Shown: positions 4,300-39,137, counted from the first letter of the stretch. The stretch is 64,000 nucleotides of DNA from Elsinoe ampelina (GCA_010093995.1 ML992502.1:861001-925000), one strand, 5' to 3'. The notes: generated by a model from the letters alone, not told the origin. Made by a program: numbers and translations.

Positions 4300-5311
4300 T
4301 CATTTGCAGGAAACCGAGCTTGAGGGGATCGATGTTCGGTATCCTTCCTGCTTCTGGCACAGGGCCACGAACTCTCGCAATGGTGATACGAGCTCGCCGA
4401 GCTGCTCTACTCGGCTGCATAGGTTTCTTCAGCTCAGAATGCAGTACTCGTGATGGCAGCCAGAATTTTCGTCTAGGATGGACAAATGTATCAGGGAATA
4501 CAGGGCCTGGAAGATCGAACCCGACCGAAAGGCCCTTGGGTCCGAAGTAGGTCTTGTTCCAGCAAGCAGTCCAGCAAGGTAGGGAACCATGTTTGACGGC
4601 TTTGCGAAGGCTGCGAGCCTTGAAAACAAAGTAGAAAGGCGGTACTACAACGCCGAGGAAGGCCACAGCTTTGATAGGGAAGCCAGCAATGAGGAAAGAC
4701 TCGACCAAGCCACCAGCAAGGAGATTAAGAATGTATTGGCTGACTCTGATTTTGTTGGTGAAGATGAAGCGAGTGACAAAAGTGTTCCAATCTTCACGAG
4801 AGACGCCGTAATCTTGAAGCCATACAGGATACTGGTATCCGGAGGAAGCATGCCGGCGACGAGGGACTAGCTGAACGCTGGGTATCTTGCTCTTCGTAAG
4901 CTCCATGTCCGGAAAATATACTGGCATCTGTCGAATTGCTGCTGGAGTCGCCAATCTTCCCCTTCGCTCTTCGCCCTTCTTGCATCGCATGTGCACCATC
5001 ATCCAAAGCCGTGTAAGGCATCTTCTCCCATACTTTGCGATGAGTTGCGTCTTGAAAAACGCCAATGCTTGTTCTGTCTCGCTTTGCCTGCTGAGCAGGT
5101 AGTTTTGGATCCCTTCGAGTGTCTCCGGATCTTCTCTGACAGTAATGAACGGTCCGACTCTTGTCTGCCTCCACCTGTCGTAGATGCGACCAGGTACACT
5201 GCGTTTCGAGTAATGATGGCCGAGGTCGTGATCGTCGTTCGGCTTGTTTCGCTTGGATGATGAAGGTTTGATGTCGGGTCGAGATGGCGGCCACCAACGT
5301 ATCGCCGACAT
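4280..5311 (-). CDS. Hypothetical membrane protein with an Erf4/Golgin-A7-like fungal motif
   Basis: 343-aa ORF: PVWLQDYGVSREDWNTF, two hydrophobic segments, then WNKTYFGPKGL. This resembles the Erf4-like pattern from memory. Confidence 0.55.
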   Translation of the reverse strand: MSAIRWWPPSRPDIKPSSSKRNKPNDDHDLGHHYSKRSVPGRIYDRWRQTRVGPFITVREDPETLEGIQNYLLSRQSETEQALAFFKTQLIAKYGRRCLTRLWMMVHMRCKKGEERRGRLATPAAIRQMPVYFPDMELTKSKIPSVQLVPRRRHASSGYQYPVWLQDYGVSREDWNTFVTRFIFTNKIRVSQYILNLLAGGLVESFLIAGFPIKAVAFLGVVVPPFYFVFKARSLRKAVKHGSLPCWTACWNKTYFGPKGLSVGFDLPGPVFPDTFVHPRRKFWLPSRVLHSELKKPMQPSRAARRARITIARVRGPVPEAGRIPNIDPLKLGFLQMSEWAQG

Positions 5312-5459
5312 GCTTCATATGAGGGCTAGAAATGGTGGTGTCGACCGGAAGTCATTCTGTTCATCGACGAACATAACTATCACAGTTTGAGATCGAGCGT
5401 TTCGCGCCCGAATCTACCATCGCACCTGCCTTTCGAAGCTACCTAAGTGCTCGCTCCGC

Positions 5460-7382
5460 TCAAAGCTCCATTGTAGCAATGCGACCGCCAACTTCACCCT
5501 CTTGACTAAATGGACCACGAGCAATACTTCTCCTGAGCGTCTCCAAGATATCCTTGTATGCCTGTTCAGGCTCGTCTTCGGTAGCGGATTTCAGGCGACT
5601 ATACATTGCCTTCAAAGTCTCATGCTTTGCCACAGCGACTTTATATGCAACACTCTCGACATCACCGCGTCCGCCCACTAAGTTGGCGAATGACCTCGCC
5701 GGCTTCAAGATCCATGGTAGTGTGTGCTCAAGGGACGGAGGAGCAAGTATTGACTGCACACCTGACGCCGGAGTGGCCGGGGTCGGATTTGGAAGTTGCC
5801 GGACAAAGTCGGATTCTTTGATCATGCCTGGCAACGTAGCTTCTGAAAGTGGTGCCCATGTTGAAGTGATGATTGAGGATACTACATTGATGGCAGCGAG
5901 AGCAGTATCGGTGAGAGAAACGCTGTCCGCGTGTGCTACGAGGTCGGCAAACAAACGTGGATTGTACCTGGTGACATAGAGGAAGTAGAGCACTCGAGCG
6001 GCTTGAGCTTCGACGACACCACGTTCATCGATGGAACTTGTCATTGGAGACTCATCTGGGTACGTGAGCGATTCTACTTTGTTTGGACCTTGGAAGATAG
6101 TAGCCAGCGTGTTTAGAGCATCTGGGTTGGTCTGCTTTGAAGGAAGTAGCCTGATGACGCTGCCGACAGCTTGACTTGCAGAATCTGCTCCAGGGAGTAA
6201 AGCAACTCGAGGGAGACTGGCGAGCACATGGAGATCGTGCCTAGGTGACTCTTGATGAGCCCATCTACTCGGAGATAGGTCGATAGCCTGCTCTAATCTT
6301 CTCACGACCTTCGATCGTGCAGGACTTCCCAGGAAATGCTTCTGATAGACTGAAGCATAAGTGGCGACATACTTGGCTGCCGATGGGTAGAGAAATGGAA
6401 CTTCGAGTATGCCATGCCTCCGTTCGTCGGGATCTATGTAAAGACTGACGACCTTGTTGTGAATGCCATGCTGAATAAGATAGTCGAGGGAGAGCGATGT
6501 GTCTTGAGTGGAATCAAAACCAGCTTGATTGACGGTCTGGATGAGATCCACGAAGAATTCGAAAAGACATCTGTACATAATTACGTCGTCTTTCGTGTCA
6601 ACCATGTTTAGCACAGCGAAGCTCAACAGGGAGGCAGAGGAATCGGCAGTTGAGAAATACCTCTGCTCCACATCCTTGTTATGCGAGCGTGTGACCGTGT
6701 CCCAGTCCAGAGCTGCTATATTGGGGAGCACTTCCAGCAGTCTAGCTTGTGCAAGGGTCCGCTGTTTCCGTGAGAGCTCGTGACTGGATTTGCTGGTATC
6801 GGCCACGCACAGGGAAAAGAGAAGAGAGTAGACATCTTTGTCTTGGAAGACACGCTTCCATACAAGTCCAGGTGGACTTCCCGTTGTATCCCGAGACGAT
6901 TGGTGATCGATTTTGAGAAGGCCATGTAAGACTTCTCCGGCCTCCTGCGCGATGCCAGGTTCTGGACTCGAGAGCCAAAGTGTGATCAGCGAAGAAATGA
7001 TCTCAGGTCGTCCGGCAACTGTAGCTGCATCAGATGGATTCAGGGTAGCTTTCCTGAGGATTGCTAGGAGGAGCCTGTTGTACGGCACTGCTTGAACATT
7101 CAGACCAGACACAAAGTCGACATTTTCAGAGAGTGTCAGAATGTCCGAGAAGGAGTATGGCTTCAGCAGAGCTATCAGCAGCTTATTGAGAAGTGTGGGA
7201 TCAGCTTGTATGGTTGGTACCACTGCTGACAATTCCTTCACCAGGCTCACGGATTCGGGTTGTTGAAGGTAAAGTGGGAGAACTTGACAGCATGTCTCCA
7301 CCAGTCTCTCATTGACGGGTGTTGAGGCCTCATTCCGTAGGGTAGATAAATGGGCTTGCAGCTCTTCATAAGCCTGCGCCAT
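5460..7382 (-). CDS. Hsm3-like proteasome 19S assembly chaperone (ARM/HEAT-like)
   Basis: 640-aa intronless Leu-rich helical ORF. GLVWKRVFQDKDVY, TLAQARLLE and C-terminal GGRIATMEL resemble filamentous-fungal HSM3 homologues. Confidence 0.65.
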   Translation of the reverse strand: MAQAYEELQAHLSTLRNEASTPVNERLVETCCQVLPLYLQQPESVSLVKELSAVVPTIQADPTLLNKLLIALLKPYSFSDILTLSENVDFVSGLNVQAVPYNRLLLAILRKATLNPSDAATVAGRPEIISSLITLWLSSPEPGIAQEAGEVLHGLLKIDHQSSRDTTGSPPGLVWKRVFQDKDVYSLLFSLCVADTSKSSHELSRKQRTLAQARLLEVLPNIAALDWDTVTRSHNKDVEQRYFSTADSSASLLSFAVLNMVDTKDDVIMYRCLFEFFVDLIQTVNQAGFDSTQDTSLSLDYLIQHGIHNKVVSLYIDPDERRHGILEVPFLYPSAAKYVATYASVYQKHFLGSPARSKVVRRLEQAIDLSPSRWAHQESPRHDLHVLASLPRVALLPGADSASQAVGSVIRLLPSKQTNPDALNTLATIFQGPNKVESLTYPDESPMTSSIDERGVVEAQAARVLYFLYVTRYNPRLFADLVAHADSVSLTDTALAAINVVSSIITSTWAPLSEATLPGMIKESDFVRQLPNPTPATPASGVQSILAPPSLEHTLPWILKPARSFANLVGGRGDVESVAYKVAVAKHETLKAMYSRLKSATEDEPEQAYKDILETLRRSIARGPFSQEGEVGGRIATMEL

Positions 7383-30255: not shown

Positions 30256-30667
30256 CTTGAAGCTGTGTATGATAGAGAGAGAAAGAAATATGATTCAAGG
30301 CTGTTGATCAAGCTCCGAACAACTGGCCGCGGGGGCCCAAAATGGAAACGCTTCACCTCCATCTGGCCCCTGAACTTCTTCTTTACCACCACTCTGATTG
30401 TTCGTCATGTTCACCGACACCATATCTTTGAAGGAACCTGTGGACGCTCCGTCCCGTGGCAATTGACACAGATCTCGCGGAGCAAAGTGGTGCAGCACCC
30501 CAGTATCGCCATGTTCGATATAGGCAGGAGCGAACCTAAGGTAGTTCATCCTCTGGCCATTCGACGATTGAGCCGCTCGAGACCCTCGGCACAATCCAGA
30601 GACCAGCTCACTGGCACCAAGGAAGTATGCTAATTTTCCTTTATCACTCAACTATCAATATCTCATA

Positions 30668-32444
30668 ATGTCTGCCCGGCCGATCCGCACATTCACACCT
30701 CCCCTAAACCAAGGCCGGGCTGGATCTTCTGATAGCTCGTCTTTGAAGTCTTTCCTCGACAAAGGCCCTGGAATTCCGATACCTCAAAGGCAGAACCTGA
30801 CCAGTAAGACTGCTCAGGTACAGAACTTTCATGTAGTAACCAAAGCCAGGTCCTGAACTCAAGTCTGCACTGTCAAAAAGTGCACCTACCACACCTGGAC
30901 CATCCAAGAAACATGCTCATTTCGACGATGTGAAGATAGAGCATCGTTACAGTCTTCATCGCACAATCACTGCTCCTTCGTCATTTGAAAGCACACCTAG
31001 TCTTCTAATTCCGGACATGCATGATTCTGCTCCGCAACATCTCGACCCGGTCAGTATGGAAGATTCACCACCACGATCCCCTGATGAGAGCTCCGACGCA
31101 GAAGAATCAGATGGCTCTACTAGTGGTTATATGGACGCTACCCATTCTCGGTCTCTTCTGAGACGGTCTAACACTGGCGATTCAATTCCGACTTCTACGA
31201 AGCATGTCATGACAAGGTGGTCGTCGGATCCCGAACAACGTACTATCAAGGTTCTATCTCAGCAAAATCACCATGATGTTGCGTCCCTGCTTCATCGCGA
31301 AGAGAGTGACTCGTCTCACTCAAGCAGATCCGTAACATCCTCGATCATCGGGGGCACTTTGCAACTCCCAGCGAGCATGATCAAACGGCCTGCAGAGTGT
31401 GCTACTACCCACGTGAGCATTCTGGCCAGAGCGCACTCGACGTCGGATACAGCGGACCCCGACTCTGTCGCTTTACTGGACACGAGACTCAGTCCACCCC
31501 CTCCACAATCTGTATATTCTCCAAGTGGCAGTTTTAAAGCTGCATAGGATGACGACATCACCACAGCGAGTGATACTTCACGTAGTGCCTCAGAGAAGGC
31601 ACTACGTAGAACGCCAACGAGGAGACAAGAGACTCATAGCCGTCACGACCTTGCTGCCGAGAAGGTCGATTCGAAGCTGACTGAATGGTCCAAGGAGGCC
31701 CGTGGCGGCGGATTTGAGCGTCGGTCTCCGGCCTTGAGGGCGCAAAAGCGAGATTCACGGCATCCGAGTGGCGACGAAGGTGTGCCAGGTCCACCCAACA
31801 CAGGTCGGTCGAGTTTGACGCCATCCCGTCCGGAATCTGCGTCGAGGAGTCTTGCAACAACACCTGGCTCGGATCCGCCTACGCCTACCTGGGTATTGAA
31901 GAGTGCGGAGACGAGATCAAGCTCGCCGGTACAGAGTCTTGACTATGGCACAATTAGCAACCTCACCAAGGGATTTCAGGCTATGTCTGACCGCGACAAG
32001 TTCCAGCTCCTTCCACGTGACTCTTTGGACGTGCACCGCAAGCATATCGAAGAACATCGCTCGGATCCTGCCAACCATCACTTGATCAACGCCAAAGACT
32101 CATTTCTGATCAACAAGAACAGATTCGAAAAGTATCCCAAATCAGGACGACTTCTACAGCCTACATTTTCCCGTCTGACTATTGGCGGCTTGTCACCGAT
32201 TCAGGACGCTTCTCCACCTGACCCTAGACAATACTTGACGAAGAGTCAGCGCGAGCCGAAACGACCTAGTCGGAATGGCACAACCATTGTGCCGGAAAGC
32301 AAGCCAATCATAGATGGACATCGGAAGGCTTAGAAGGCGGTCGCTACATCTGCAGAGATTCGCGGTCATCCTGATTCTGACCACGAATGTCCGATATGCT
32401 CGATCGAAAGGCCCAGGACAACAGCGCAGCGTCAAGTGACTTGA
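30668..32444 (+). CDS. Hypothetical Ser-rich protein with two in-frame TAG codons (31545-31547, 32331-32333)
   Basis: Exon 30668-30803, intron 30804-30849 (GTAAGA..CAG), then a single frame to TGA 32442-32444 broken only by two TAGs. C-terminal DHECPICSIERPR. Confidence 0.7.
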
Positions 32445-32624
32445 AGGGGTTTATCATTTTTAGCTCAATCATACATGTCCCAACCCTAGGAGTCCTGCAT
32501 GATGCAATTCCATATCCTCCACCTAGATAGATCCGAACGCCATCGCTTCCTACCTTCATGTCCGTTCGAAATGCGAACCCATTTTTCTGTTGACCCTTTT
32601 CCTGTCGCTCATGCGCATGCCCGT

Positions 32625-33002
32625 TCAGTCTACATCCACCCCCTTCTGCCTCAATTCCGACTTTGCTTGCTCAATCTCGCCCATCAACTCCTTATACGCA
32701 TTCGGAACGTCGTTGAAGGTGAAGACTCCGTAGCCAAGCTTGAACAGGAGGTATGCGCCGAATGAGACAATGGCCCAGACAGGCAGCTGAGCAGATTAGT
32801 GGTGACATGGAGTGAGCTTCGCATTTGTGACTCACTACTGGGATGATCTCCTGCTCGATCACGGCTGGCAGTGGCACGTAGCCGAGGAAGAGTGCTGCAT
32901 ATATCTATTGGCAGTTAGTGGATGGTCGAGTCAGGAGAAGCTGCGATGTCGTACCGAGGAGAGGAGGACGAAAAGGGATATCGATTGTGTGGCTTTCGTC
33001 AT
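32625..33002 (-). CDS. DPM3: Dolichol-phosphate mannosyltransferase subunit 3
   Basis: Introns 32954-32905 and 32835-32787. Spliced product MTKATQ..LPVWAIVSFGAYLLFKLGYGVFTFNDVPNAYKELMGEIEQAKSELRQKGVDVD. Not seen as one ORF in the track. Confidence 0.93.
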
Positions 33003-36617: not shown

Positions 36618-39137
36618 TCAAACAACCTCATCCCCCGCGATCCCGTCCCCCGTCTCCCAAACCGCCTGTGAATCCATCCTTACATCTTCTTCCCAAATAC
36701 CACCGTCTCTCGAAACCCGCACTTCCGCCGCCGACTCCACCGGGCTATTTTTCCAAGACCAGAGTCGACCTATCCCAAGCCCTTCTTTCTTCTCCTCCCG
36801 TACTTCTTGTACAACCCTATCTTCCTCCATAGTCTCATACACACTCCCTACATCACGAATAGCATCAGCCCGCCGATCAACCCACTCCTCGACCCCCAGC
36901 TTCGTCTTCCGCCTCGCCTCAAACACAGGATCCGACGCCTCCCACATACCCGACCGCCGCGACCGGTACAGCCCCGACTTGAGCCCCTGCGCCGGTCCAG
37001 CTCCCCGCACCACCGGCTCATCCTCGAACAGGATACCCAAATACGCCACCAGGCCGGTCCAGATCTGCCCGGTGACCCAGACGAGCGTGCTGGTGAGGGG
37101 ACACCACAGCCAGCGCACCGGGCGGAAGAGCATAGTTGGTAGCGCGAAGGGGTAGCGTGGGGCGTTCGGGTCGACGCCGAAGCCGGTCATGTCGTGGGCG
37201 TATCGGGGTTGGCACCAGATGGTGCAGGCGGTGGTTTCGAGGAGGTACCATGTGAGGCAGGCGGCGGTGAGGATGCCGACGGTGGTGAGGCCCCATGGTC
37301 GGGGATTTGCGAGGGGGGTTTCGGTGGCGGGGTCGAAGAAGAGGGTTGTGGTTTCTTTGAGCAGGTGGGACCAGAGGCTGCCTTGCTGCTCGCGGATGAT
37401 GAGCTCTTTGCCTGGTACAATGTGGTCGGTGGGCAGACCGGAACTCATCTCTACGCGCTTCTCCATGCCCCGTAGACCTCGCTTGACTTCCCTTACGCCT
37501 CGTCTGGCACTCCTGAGGCGACCTGCCATGTCTTCGATGACGAGAAGCTCTTCCCTCCGCTCTTCGTCTGATTTGCTCAAGGGTCTTCCTGTGGAGTGGA
37601 GCCTGTCTAGCTCGGCTTTCACTTCGTCCAGGTTCAGGGTGGCGGAGACGTCGGTTTGAGGTTGGGTCTGTGTCAAGGTCGGATCCAGGAGGTCTTCGAG
37701 AGAGGCGATCGTGTCGTCACCTAAGTTCTGCGTTTGCGTTCTAGGCTGAGACAGGAGATTGGACAAAGCTGAAGGTGGCAGTGAAGGGGCGGATGTAGAC
37801 CGTTGAGGAGGTAATGGAGGTGGCTGCGAAAGCTTCGGAGAAGGTGGCGGGAGTTCGGCTGGAGGCACATCCTTGACTGGTGATGAAGGTTGTGCAGAAT
37901 CGTGTCGGACGGTGAAAGGTGTATCCACCCAAGCGCCCATGACTTTCGGGGTCTTTGCTGGTAAGACTGGAGCTGCAGGTCGTGGAGTTTCGTGGATAGC
38001 AGGCGGAGCGACTTCAGGGGCTTGAGCTGAGGACTGCCGTTGAGTATTTGGAAGGTGTTGAGGTCGACTGATGGGTTGTGGGGCGGTATTAGGAGACGGG
38101 CTGGGAGACTGGCTTGTGACTCGCGCAAGTCGCTTGAGGAGCTGAATAGATTCTTGTCGGGTTGTGCTTGGCCGAGTGCTGTTCGCTTGATTGGCGTGAC
38201 CCATGTCGTTCGAAACAGACTCCCGCTTGACGCCTGAGCTGATGCCATTGATGGGAACATTCTCCTTGTTGCTCCCTACAAGCCTTGCAGCTATTCCCGG
38301 CTTGTCGTCTGGGGAAGACCGTCGATGTCTAGTCACCGGCTGTCCTGCGATACGGGACATTCGTGACTCGAGTTGACCCCGTACTGACTCTGGAGATGTC
38401 CTCTCCGATATCCTGCTCAGCTGATCTCTTGCAACGCCACGACTTTGTATGCCCTCCAGCTCTCTCTTCCTACTCGTGACCATGGGAGTCGATTGTAGGA
38501 ATGAGCCTGCTGTGAAGTCCTGCTCTGTTTCCCACTGCCGAATGCGCTCAATCGAATTGTTATGCTCTACTCGCACAGGTGACGAAGCCAGCCGTCGGCT
38601 TTTAGACGATACCGGTGTCGTCCGCTCTACTGACTGTACTGGTCGATCCGCAGCAGTCGCCCAGTCTACCGCACGCGATATGCTCTCTCTCTGCTCTCGG
38701 CGAGACGTTGCCGGATCAGCGCTAGCAGGTCTCCCAATCTCAGCGTCTATGTCGCCCAGCCTCCGTAGCCAGCCATTGCTCTGCCTCGCCTTTCGCCCCC
38801 AATCGCGTGGTATATTAAGAGGTGGATCTGAACCAGCTGTCCAAGTCTGCTCCGCGACTCCAGGATCGCTCCCTCCAGACGAGATAGACCTCGTCCCCAG
38901 TTGATTTGTGCCATTCAGGTGCTCCAGAGTAGCGCCGATTCCAATATGTGGTCGCGCTTTGCGAAATGCTTGTCCGGGTCCATTAAGCGCCCTGTTCAAG
39001 CGTTGTTCGTCCTTTGCATGCTGTAGGAGCATGCGACCAAATTCGTCCGTGTCGTCCTCAGCAGAAGATAGACCTGAAATGACCGAGCCAGAGTCGAAAG
39101 TCTTGCCATCACGCGCCCAGGCCATGTCGACTGCCAT
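36618..39137 (-). CDS. Hypothetical protein: long disordered region, coiled coil, C-terminal TM segments
   Basis: 839-aa intronless ORF. PPLNIPRDWGRK and GAWVDTP motifs. Hydrophobic region near WYLLETTACTIWC. Confidence 0.8.
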   Translation of the reverse strand: MAVDMAWARDGKTFDSGSVISGLSSAEDDTDEFGRMLLQHAKDEQRLNRALNGPGQAFRKARPHIGIGATLEHLNGTNQLGTRSISSGGSDPGVAEQTWTAGSDPPLNIPRDWGRKARQSNGWLRRLGDIDAEIGRPASADPATSRREQRESISRAVDWATAADRPVQSVERTTPVSSKSRRLASSPVRVEHNNSIERIRQWETEQDFTAGSFLQSTPMVTSRKRELEGIQSRGVARDQLSRISERTSPESVRGQLESRMSRIAGQPVTRHRRSSPDDKPGIAARLVGSNKENVPINGISSGVKRESVSNDMGHANQANSTRPSTTRQESIQLLKRLARVTSQSPSPSPNTAPQPISRPQHLPNTQRQSSAQAPEVAPPAIHETPRPAAPVLPAKTPKVMGAWVDTPFTVRHDSAQPSSPVKDVPPAELPPPSPKLSQPPPLPPQRSTSAPSLPPSALSNLLSQPRTQTQNLGDDTIASLEDLLDPTLTQTQPQTDVSATLNLDEVKAELDRLHSTGRPLSKSDEERREELLVIEDMAGRLRSARRGVREVKRGLRGMEKRVEMSSGLPTDHIVPGKELIIREQQGSLWSHLLKETTTLFFDPATETPLANPRPWGLTTVGILTAACLTWYLLETTACTIWCQPRYAHDMTGFGVDPNAPRYPFALPTMLFRPVRWLWCPLTSTLVWVTGQIWTGLVAYLGILFEDEPVVRGAGPAQGLKSGLYRSRRSGMWEASDPVFEARRKTKLGVEEWVDRRADAIRDVGSVYETMEEDRVVQEVREEKKEGLGIGRLWSWKNSPVESAAEVRVSRDGGIWEEDVRMDSQAVWETGDGIAGDEVV

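Follow-up and report, generated by a model that had tools for sequence, protein, structure and literature searches.

A gene of Elsinoe ampelina with two in-frame TAG codons, the first at a near-invariant tryptophan position: a candidate for conditional premature-stop correction in a Dothideomycete

How should a gene be read when its frame is closed halfway by a stop codon, stays open behind it, and has relatives that carry tryptophan (Trp) where the stop stands? The question is raised by a locus at positions 30,668 to 32,444, plus strand, of a 64,000-nucleotide stretch of DNA from Elsinoe ampelina (GCA_010093995.1 ML992502.1:861001-925000), referred to here at its full length as the window. 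Two TAG codons, TAG1 at 31545-31547 and TAG2 at 32331-32333, interrupt what otherwise reads as one intact gene. Both are genuine and both persist in the mature spliced mRNA, and comparison with relatives suggests that the locus may belong to the premature-stop-correction type, in which UAG is turned into UGG by conditional adenosine-to-inosine (A-to-I) editing. A preliminary description, made from the sequence, had proposed as much and had considered a host outside the Sordariomycetes; the host is indeed a Dothideomycete, the grapevine anthracnose fungus of the order Myriangiales.

Reading frame, transcripts, and coding constraint

Direct reading of the window gives a plus-strand frame of 534 codons from 30840 to 32444, whose sole breaks are the two TAGs; the same frame closes at a TGA (32442-32444), with zero TAA, TGA, or frameshift before that TGA. 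TAG1 lies in the context ..SPSGSFKAA*DDDITT.., with ..FKAA-x-DDDITTASDTSR as its flanking residues, and TAG2 in ..GHRKA*KAVATS.., with DHECPICSIERPR on its 3' side. The frame had been described correctly in every detail in the preliminary account, including the CxxC/CPIC motif behind TAG2. Both halves of the gene have homologues, and the public model, the E. ampelina hypothetical protein BDZ85DRAFT_50603 (P0007; 277 residues, 100% identical), ends at TAG1. Just four same-frame pairs of open stretches (at least 150 codons each) split by one stop occur in the six frames of the window; the other three lie at 37153 (TAG; antisense to an 842-aa open reading frame), 55530 (plus strand, TAA), and 17799 (minus strand, TGA). 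The parts of the gene, read from the window, from alignments, and from contigs assembled from four sequencing runs (X3 to X6), are as follows.

30668..30803, plus strand: exon 1, from ATG 30668 (MSARPIRTF...); contig X3 joins 30647-30803 to 30850, and the N-terminus is that of the annotated P0007.
30804..30849, plus strand: intron 1, 46 nt, GTAAGA...CAG (GT..AG); X3 contig joint from 30803 to 30850, shorter side 157 letters.
30850..31544, plus strand: exon 2, first part, the N-terminal module to ..QSVYSPSGSFKAA; from reading and invariant alignment columns.
31545..31547, plus strand: TAG1, a stop at the near-invariant Trp column of the family and the annotated end of the 277-aa product; from reading and alignments.
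31548..32330, plus strand: in-frame continuation of 261 codons, from reading; 85.4% identity to E. batatas, against 78.4% upstream.
31581..31606, plus strand: perfect 10-bp hairpin with a 6-nt loop, 34 nt 3' of TAG1, from a fold of 121 nt.
32331..32333, plus strand: TAG2; Trp in E. fawcettii (PAWRAV), Phe in P0008; unspliced in X3 and X5.
32334..32444, plus strand: C-terminal 36 codons with the family-wide E[IV]xGHPxxDxxCPIC, then TGA 32442-32444; from reading and alignment.

The transcript evidence comes chiefly from the X3 contig (1757 nt, word depth 17.4), which aligns to 30647-30803 and 30850-32448 without a single difference or gap, intron 1 gone and both TAGs present. Runs X3, X4, and X5 are not recorded as RNA, and their RNA nature is guessed; the X3 contig is taken as a spliced transcript because the 46-nt intron is absent from it. 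The X3 run differs in sample and study from the likely source runs of the window, and X5 represents a third study; its contig spans 32217-32374 unchanged, with TAG2. X3 thus carries both TAGs and X5 the second, so neither is an assembly error, and both in-frame UAGs are kept in the mature spliced mRNA. Contigs of X4 and X5 miss TAG1, and that of X6 misses both TAGs; X6 (organism B) is 99% alike, has intron 1 unspliced, and gave no orthologue information. Across the four runs, the only skip joints connect 30803 to 30850 and 30624 to 30850, a third listed joint (31475 to 31745, opposite strands) being a chimeric contig, and no joint removing TAG1 or TAG2 was found among the assembled contigs. 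The preliminary description had asked whether the TAGs are spliced out: the assembled transcripts retain both, and its two weak in-frame introns (31512-31547 and 32289-32333) find no support, as the X3 contig runs through them.

Coding constraint does not fade behind TAG1. In comparison with E. batatas, the E. ampelina protein is 78.4% identical upstream of TAG1 (138/176) and 85.4% identical downstream (246/288); in comparison with E. fawcettii the two figures are 50.9% and 71.6%. When E. fawcettii serves as outgroup, the downstream part carries 9 unique changes in E. ampelina and 16 in E. batatas. The first part of exon 2 contains the conserved motifs SKSAPTTPGxSKKHAHFD and RTITAPSSFE, the continuation contains KLxxWS, PSGDEGVPxPPNTG, KYPKS, and GGLSPIQDASPPDPR, and the most conserved motif of the family, E[IV]xGHPxxDxxCPIC, is intact after TAG2. 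The first ATG behind TAG1 comes at ..FQAMSDRD, which leaves PSGDEGVPxPPNTG unreachable by internal AUG initiation. Neutral evolution behind the stops, which had been named as a possible refutation, is not what these protein-level identities indicate: the sequence there is not faster-evolving and, assessed at the protein level, appears to be under purifying selection.

These comparisons mark the locus as a live gene and no pseudogene. The young-pseudogene alternative of the preliminary description is contradicted by the conserved stop (see below) and the conserved downstream frame, and a unitary pseudogene was rejected on several grounds: no frameshift, stops that are TAG only, conservation higher downstream than upstream, and no excess of lineage-specific change. 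Repeat-induced point mutation as the source of the TAGs was also rejected, by inference, since the G+C content of the gene equals that of its surroundings and lineage-specific change is not in excess.

The two TAG positions in related fungi

Homologue searches yielded 5 near-length, 4 shorter, and 80 profile matches, with named members in Aureobasidium, Zalaria, Hortaea, Salinomyces, Oleoguttula, Coniosporium, Myriangium, and Elsinoe; by alignment, the gene is a member of a family of serine/proline-rich proteins found across the Dothideomycetes. In the stretch around TAG1 the rows align without gaps and read QSV.S..G.F...[W or stop][ED][ED], or more briefly F/Y-x-x-x-W-[ED]-[ED]. The left flank was aligned in 48 rows, two of them from the window itself, and the counts that follow cover the other 46. 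Trp occupies the TAG1 column in 28; four more (P0015, P0017, P0036, P0075) have the same W[ED][ED] motif shifted by the aligner, and P0032 has AWEGG. Five end precisely at the column (P0009, which is CAC42_4273 of Sphaceloma (Elsinoe) murrayae, and P0006, P0010, P0062, and P0080), stops read as protein ends. Three rows (E. batatas KVT40_005869, E. fawcettii D9617_59g026350, and Myriangium duriaei K461DRAFT_312729) are gene models that skip the site, and 5/46 are ambiguous.

The skipping models deserve attention of their own. Those of E. batatas and E. fawcettii omit 59 residues, with the deletion ending exactly at the TAG1 codon, as if the predictor had avoided a stop by splicing to the AG of a TAG. 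The three models bypass the stop in differing ways. DNA across the site is available from one metagenome orthologue, L002 (another, L001, stops short of it), which reads ..GGHFQAL TAG EEASEVASDSSS.. with the frame open for 28 codons beyond, to the contig end; L002 aligns through its stop to P0011 ..FRALWEEASASDSSS.. The orthologue comparison proposed beforehand therefore comes out with Trp near-invariant at the TAG1 column and with the stop itself conserved in related taxa.

Wherever in-frame stops were read in DNA, they were TAG (4/4: two in E. ampelina, one in L002, one in L003/L004). The last is an NU457-like orthologue with its entire gene in a single frame (4980-6503). Its own in-frame TAG, at 5199-5201, occupies a hairpin loop of 8 nt closed by 6 bp; the annotation of the NU457 protein P0004 begins behind this point, and P0059 ends there. 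This TAG was rejected as support for equivalence with Trp, since it sits in a variable insertion with no Trp column.

How often has this codon changed? A maximum-likelihood tree of 29 rows with both TAG positions masked, a quick tree in which several rows are partial or long-branched, places all stop-bearers within one 18-row clade (Shimodaira-Hasegawa-like approximate likelihood ratio test, 94). There they form three subclades (Elsinoe; L002 with P0006 and P0010; P0062 with P0080) that interleave with the Trp-bearers P0011, P0012, and P0028, for a minimum of 3 state changes. Forcing the 7 stop rows, a group chosen after inspection of the tree, into one clade cost 41.1 log-likelihood units (approximately unbiased test, p = 0.0001). 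Taken at face value, the tree would have TGG and stop replacing each other repeatedly at one codon of an otherwise intact gene.

TAG2 has a different setting. Its nearest uninterrupted relative, E. fawcettii, reads Trp (..TPAWRAVATS..), the residue that the earlier proposal had looked for; P0008 reads Phe, and distant relatives vary. The E. batatas model omits about 12 residues around TAG2, and this species may share the stop. TAG2 appears to have arisen recently from TGG, in a lineage in which TAG1 was already present.

Proposed conditional editing and its competitors

Read literally, the mRNA would give a 277-residue protein ending at TAG1. The conserved 297 codons behind it would need recoding of UAG, since they continue the frame without a start codon of their own and contain the strongest motifs of the family; A-to-I editing is then the likeliest mechanism, because both TAGs stand at positions where relatives have Trp (TGG). 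Editing would turn UAG into UIG, which is read as UGG, Trp, and the 576-residue protein would be made only in a stage with active editing. The 277-residue N-terminal form would be the default, and recoding of TAG1 alone would give a form of 539 residues. That recoding occurs, that it is RNA editing, and the stage at which it would act are three things we infer. We give even chances to the proposition that this is a premature-stop-correction gene restored by conditional A-to-I editing of UAG to UGG. The wider proposition, that such editing exists in Dothideomycetes (Myriangiales and kin) and has kept a Trp codon that must be edited while the family diverged to order level, with three or more TGG/TAG switches and with one lineage evolving a near-perfect mimic of a tRNA anticodon arm, is held tentatively, at slightly short of even.

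Fungal A-to-I mRNA editing favours a U at position -1 and hairpin loops, and its enzyme is the tRNA deaminase Tad2-Tad3 acting with Ame1, according to two studies (PMC11156358, PMC11087585), which also establish correction of premature UAG to UGG in Fusarium and Neurospora. The U at -1 is trivially given for any UAG. The hairpin preference could find a natural match in L002, whose TAG lies in a 7-nt loop, GUAGGAA, on a stem of 7 bp; the U and A of the codon are the second and third nucleotides of the loop, a geometry that matches U33-A34 of the tRNA anticodon arm. Among 1068 TAG triplets of the window folded in the same geometry, none reaches 7 bp and one reaches 6 bp. For the hairpin at 31581-31606, the 121-nt fold has z = -2.55, with 1/200 shuffles folding equally well, and it lies in coding sequence whose encoded peptide, SRSASEKALRR, is conserved in E. 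batatas. An Rfam scan of 30300-32800 gave no match.

Several facts weigh against editing. The TAG2 column lies in a variable linker and is not conserved as Trp across the family, and TGG to TAG is the commonest route to a nonsense mutation. The five further stops at the TAG1 column come from protein ends rather than codons, and the clade test was framed with the tree in view. In E. ampelina itself, TAG1 and TAG2 reach 1 and 2 bp in anticodon-arm geometry, and 61-nt folds at both are no stabler than shuffles, with TAG1 in an interior loop and TAG2 in a weak 4-nt loop. X3 shows no A>G, reading A at 31546 and 32332, in contigs that hide minority variants; this excludes majority editing in the sampled material, whatever its stage and tissue, and nothing beyond. 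As far as the consulted portions of the literature go, A-to-I mRNA editing is known from Sordariomycetes and Pyronema alone, with none in Leotiomycetes or Botrytis (PMC11087585, PMC10041177, PMC7306014), and the interaction of Ame1 with Tad3, on which editing depends, is argued to have arisen in Sordariomycetes (PMC11087585); the same paper links editing to Ame1 copies gained by duplication or horizontal transfer and to alternative N-termini of Tad3. The editing idea of the preliminary description accordingly stands in part: every comparative prediction that it named was borne out, while the contigs show A at both adenosines and E. ampelina offers no convincing hairpins.

Translational readthrough is the strongest competitor, although an unlikely one. 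A near-cognate tRNA would read UAG occasionally, and the small constitutive share of full-length protein would keep the downstream frame selected. Such a mechanism would fit a conserved stop followed by a conserved in-frame reading frame with no start codon, an unedited A in the transcript contig, and a perfect 10-bp hairpin 34 nt after TAG1, and it needs no new enzyme activity in Dothideomycetes. Readthrough of UAG inserts mainly Gln, Tyr, or Lys, not Trp, which sits poorly with the near-invariant Trp of site 1; were Trp wanted, UGA would be better suited, yet 4/4 stops are TAG. Contexts known to promote readthrough are CAR-YYA, or CUAG after UGA, and those found here (UAG-GAU, UAG-AAG, UAG-GAA) lie off that consensus. 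The L002 stop is inside a hairpin loop, where the ribosome would already have unwound the stem, and the E. ampelina hairpin is probably too far downstream to contact a ribosome paused at the stop. Programmed readthrough in fungi, as in peroxisomal isoforms, adds short targeting extensions, mostly after UGA in a specific context. The likeness is that one mRNA gives a short and a long protein, whereas the Elsinoe extension has 297 codons and follows a UAG at a Trp position.

Simple truncation is less probable again. Here the 277-residue protein would be the sole product in stop-bearing lineages, and the downstream frame of E. ampelina would be decaying, with TAG2 as the first further lesion. The models P0007 (from the Joint Genome Institute), S. 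murrayae, P0006, P0010, P0062, and P0080 all end at site 1, as truncation would have it; TAG2 is lineage-specific and in a variable linker, and TGG to TAG is an easy mutation. Decay is hard to reconcile, however, with downstream conservation that exceeds upstream conservation over three Elsinoe species, with zero frameshifts and no excess specific to E. ampelina (9 vs 16), and with a family-wide C-terminal motif intact after TAG2. The stop is moreover common to lineages about 30% identical, and the frame behind it remains open for 297 codons in E. ampelina and, in L002, for the 28 codons left before the contig ends.

Conditional splicing is improbable to a still greater degree. An exitron with the AG of TAG as acceptor would be removed in some stage to leave a stop-free long isoform. 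Acceptors commonly read TAG, the gene models of E. batatas and E. fawcettii splice to precisely this AG, and in E. ampelina a GTGAGC at 31413, the strongest in-frame donor candidate seen, would provide the donor of an in-frame 135-nt intron. There is also a precedent in FgBUD14 of F. graminearum, which, in the part of the report available, uses both editing and alternative splicing of a stop-containing intron (PMC11156358). The contigs offer no such joint: X3 runs through both sites, and an X4 contig spanning 31282-31463 crosses 31413 unspliced. The supposed intron encodes the conserved ECATTHVxxLA, LDTRL, and QSVxSxxGxF, and its removal would delete the conserved Trp position too. The 36- and 45-nt introns of the preliminary description are very short, with no branch-site-like sequence seen in either, and the differing bypasses of the three models look like gene-predictor behaviour.

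Genome-wide suppression, by a UAG-reading tRNA (for example, a Trp suppressor) or by TAG being partly sense everywhere, would agree with all four in-frame stops being TAG and can otherwise be set aside as highly improbable, given that the window has no tRNA gene, that TAG ends 13/33 of its long open stretches and so is not avoided (by a crude count, with intron boundaries and antisense frames among the stretches), and that standard-code annotation of these genomes gives normal proteins.

Known systems, protein function, and significance

One of the closest known systems is PUK1 of F. graminearum, which also has two in-frame UAGs for Trp in an otherwise intact conserved open reading frame, a truncated literal product, and a pseudogene-like appearance to annotators. 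The UAGs of PUK1 are in tandem, and its editing was shown by RNA-seq, by the part of the report consulted (PMC4817773); those of E. ampelina are 786 nt apart, in a Dothideomycete host, with no A>G observed and in a protein with no known domain. Some 70 other genes of premature-stop correction in F. graminearum (among them AMD1, FgRID, FgAMA1, and FgBUD14) share a UAG at a sense position, a full length that needs correction, and a U at -1, and the TAG of L002 lies in a hairpin loop of the preferred kind. They belong to Sordariomycetes, with the defined Tad2-Tad3-Ame1 machinery and sexual-stage RNA evidence, as given in the available portions of PMC11156358 and PMC11087585, whereas the stop of the Elsinoe family has persisted and toggled with TGG over an order-level clade, a pattern of which no description was found in the parts of the literature consulted. 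Stop-loss editing of DBF2 in Sordariomycetes is alike in that A-to-I editing of a conserved hairpin-loop TAG lets translation continue and gives the protein an additional C-terminal part (PMC13123824). In DBF2 the edited codon is the canonical stop and what follows is a disordered, destabilising tail; in the Elsinoe gene, the better-conserved half of the protein lies behind the TAG.

One motif may bear on the function of the protein. Neither P0001 nor any of the 12 homologues scanned has a Pfam match, and the atlas lead for the homologue P0029 is weak (TCO89, score 0.87, below the trust level of the atlas). An N-terminal motif, [KR][KR]x[AI][HR]F, is invariant (window 30900-30925, SKKHAHFD); it is KKHAHF in E. 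ampelina and RKIHF in Aureobasidium. We take it to resemble the RVxF docking motif of regulators of protein phosphatase 1 (PP1), and if that likeness is true, a PP1 regulator might exist in two forms, the short product and the long one.

Further features of the locus concern its edges and its variation. An X4 contig has an alternative 5' exon (30434-30624) joined to 30850, which skips 225 nt with GT..AG borders and rests on a short side of only 29 letters. It bypasses ATG 30668, and from its upstream ATG the reading enters exon 2 out of frame and stops after about 27 codons; a regulatory or non-coding isoform is possible. The X4 and X6 contigs, and not X3, have T for C at window 31033. The change, presumably a polymorphism between strains, alters the second base of a CCG codon and replaces Pro by Leu in the variable N-terminal part. 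A convergent neighbour on the minus strand (window 32437-32800), encoding a small hydrophobic protein, ends within a few bases of the TGA, and the transcript contigs of the two genes overlap at 32437-32448.

Pseudothecia-forming fungi had not yet been examined as of a 2020 review (PMC7306014), the paper on the machinery calls for a search in other lineages (PMC11087585), and no report of editing in Dothideomycetes was found in the literature searched for this class. According to a review, little is understood of the sexual stage of E. ampelina (PMC8295512). The locus gives a concrete test: the adenosines at 31546 and 32332 in a culturable grapevine pathogen, together with the codon that toggles between Trp and TAG in Myriangiales genomes.

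For annotation, it is likely that the models of four species (E. ampelina, S. murrayae, E. batatas, and E. fawcettii) miss part of the gene or contain artificial splices, and the same probably holds for Myriangium duriaei. Were readthrough the true mechanism, an extension of 297 codons that contains the better-conserved protein half would be unusual in its own right. Should editing prove true, it would have a wider range and a greater age or number of origins, and a hairpin of the L002 type would be a natural anticodon-arm-like substrate. Pyronema is treated as a separate origin in the available portions of the literature (PMC11087585, PMC10041177, PMC7306014); editing in Dothideomycetes would be either a third independent fungal origin of the ADAT type or the sign of a common origin far older than has been argued. 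Together, the comparisons suggest a locus of the premature-stop-correction type in a fungal class with no known recoding, with an unusually deep history of toggling.

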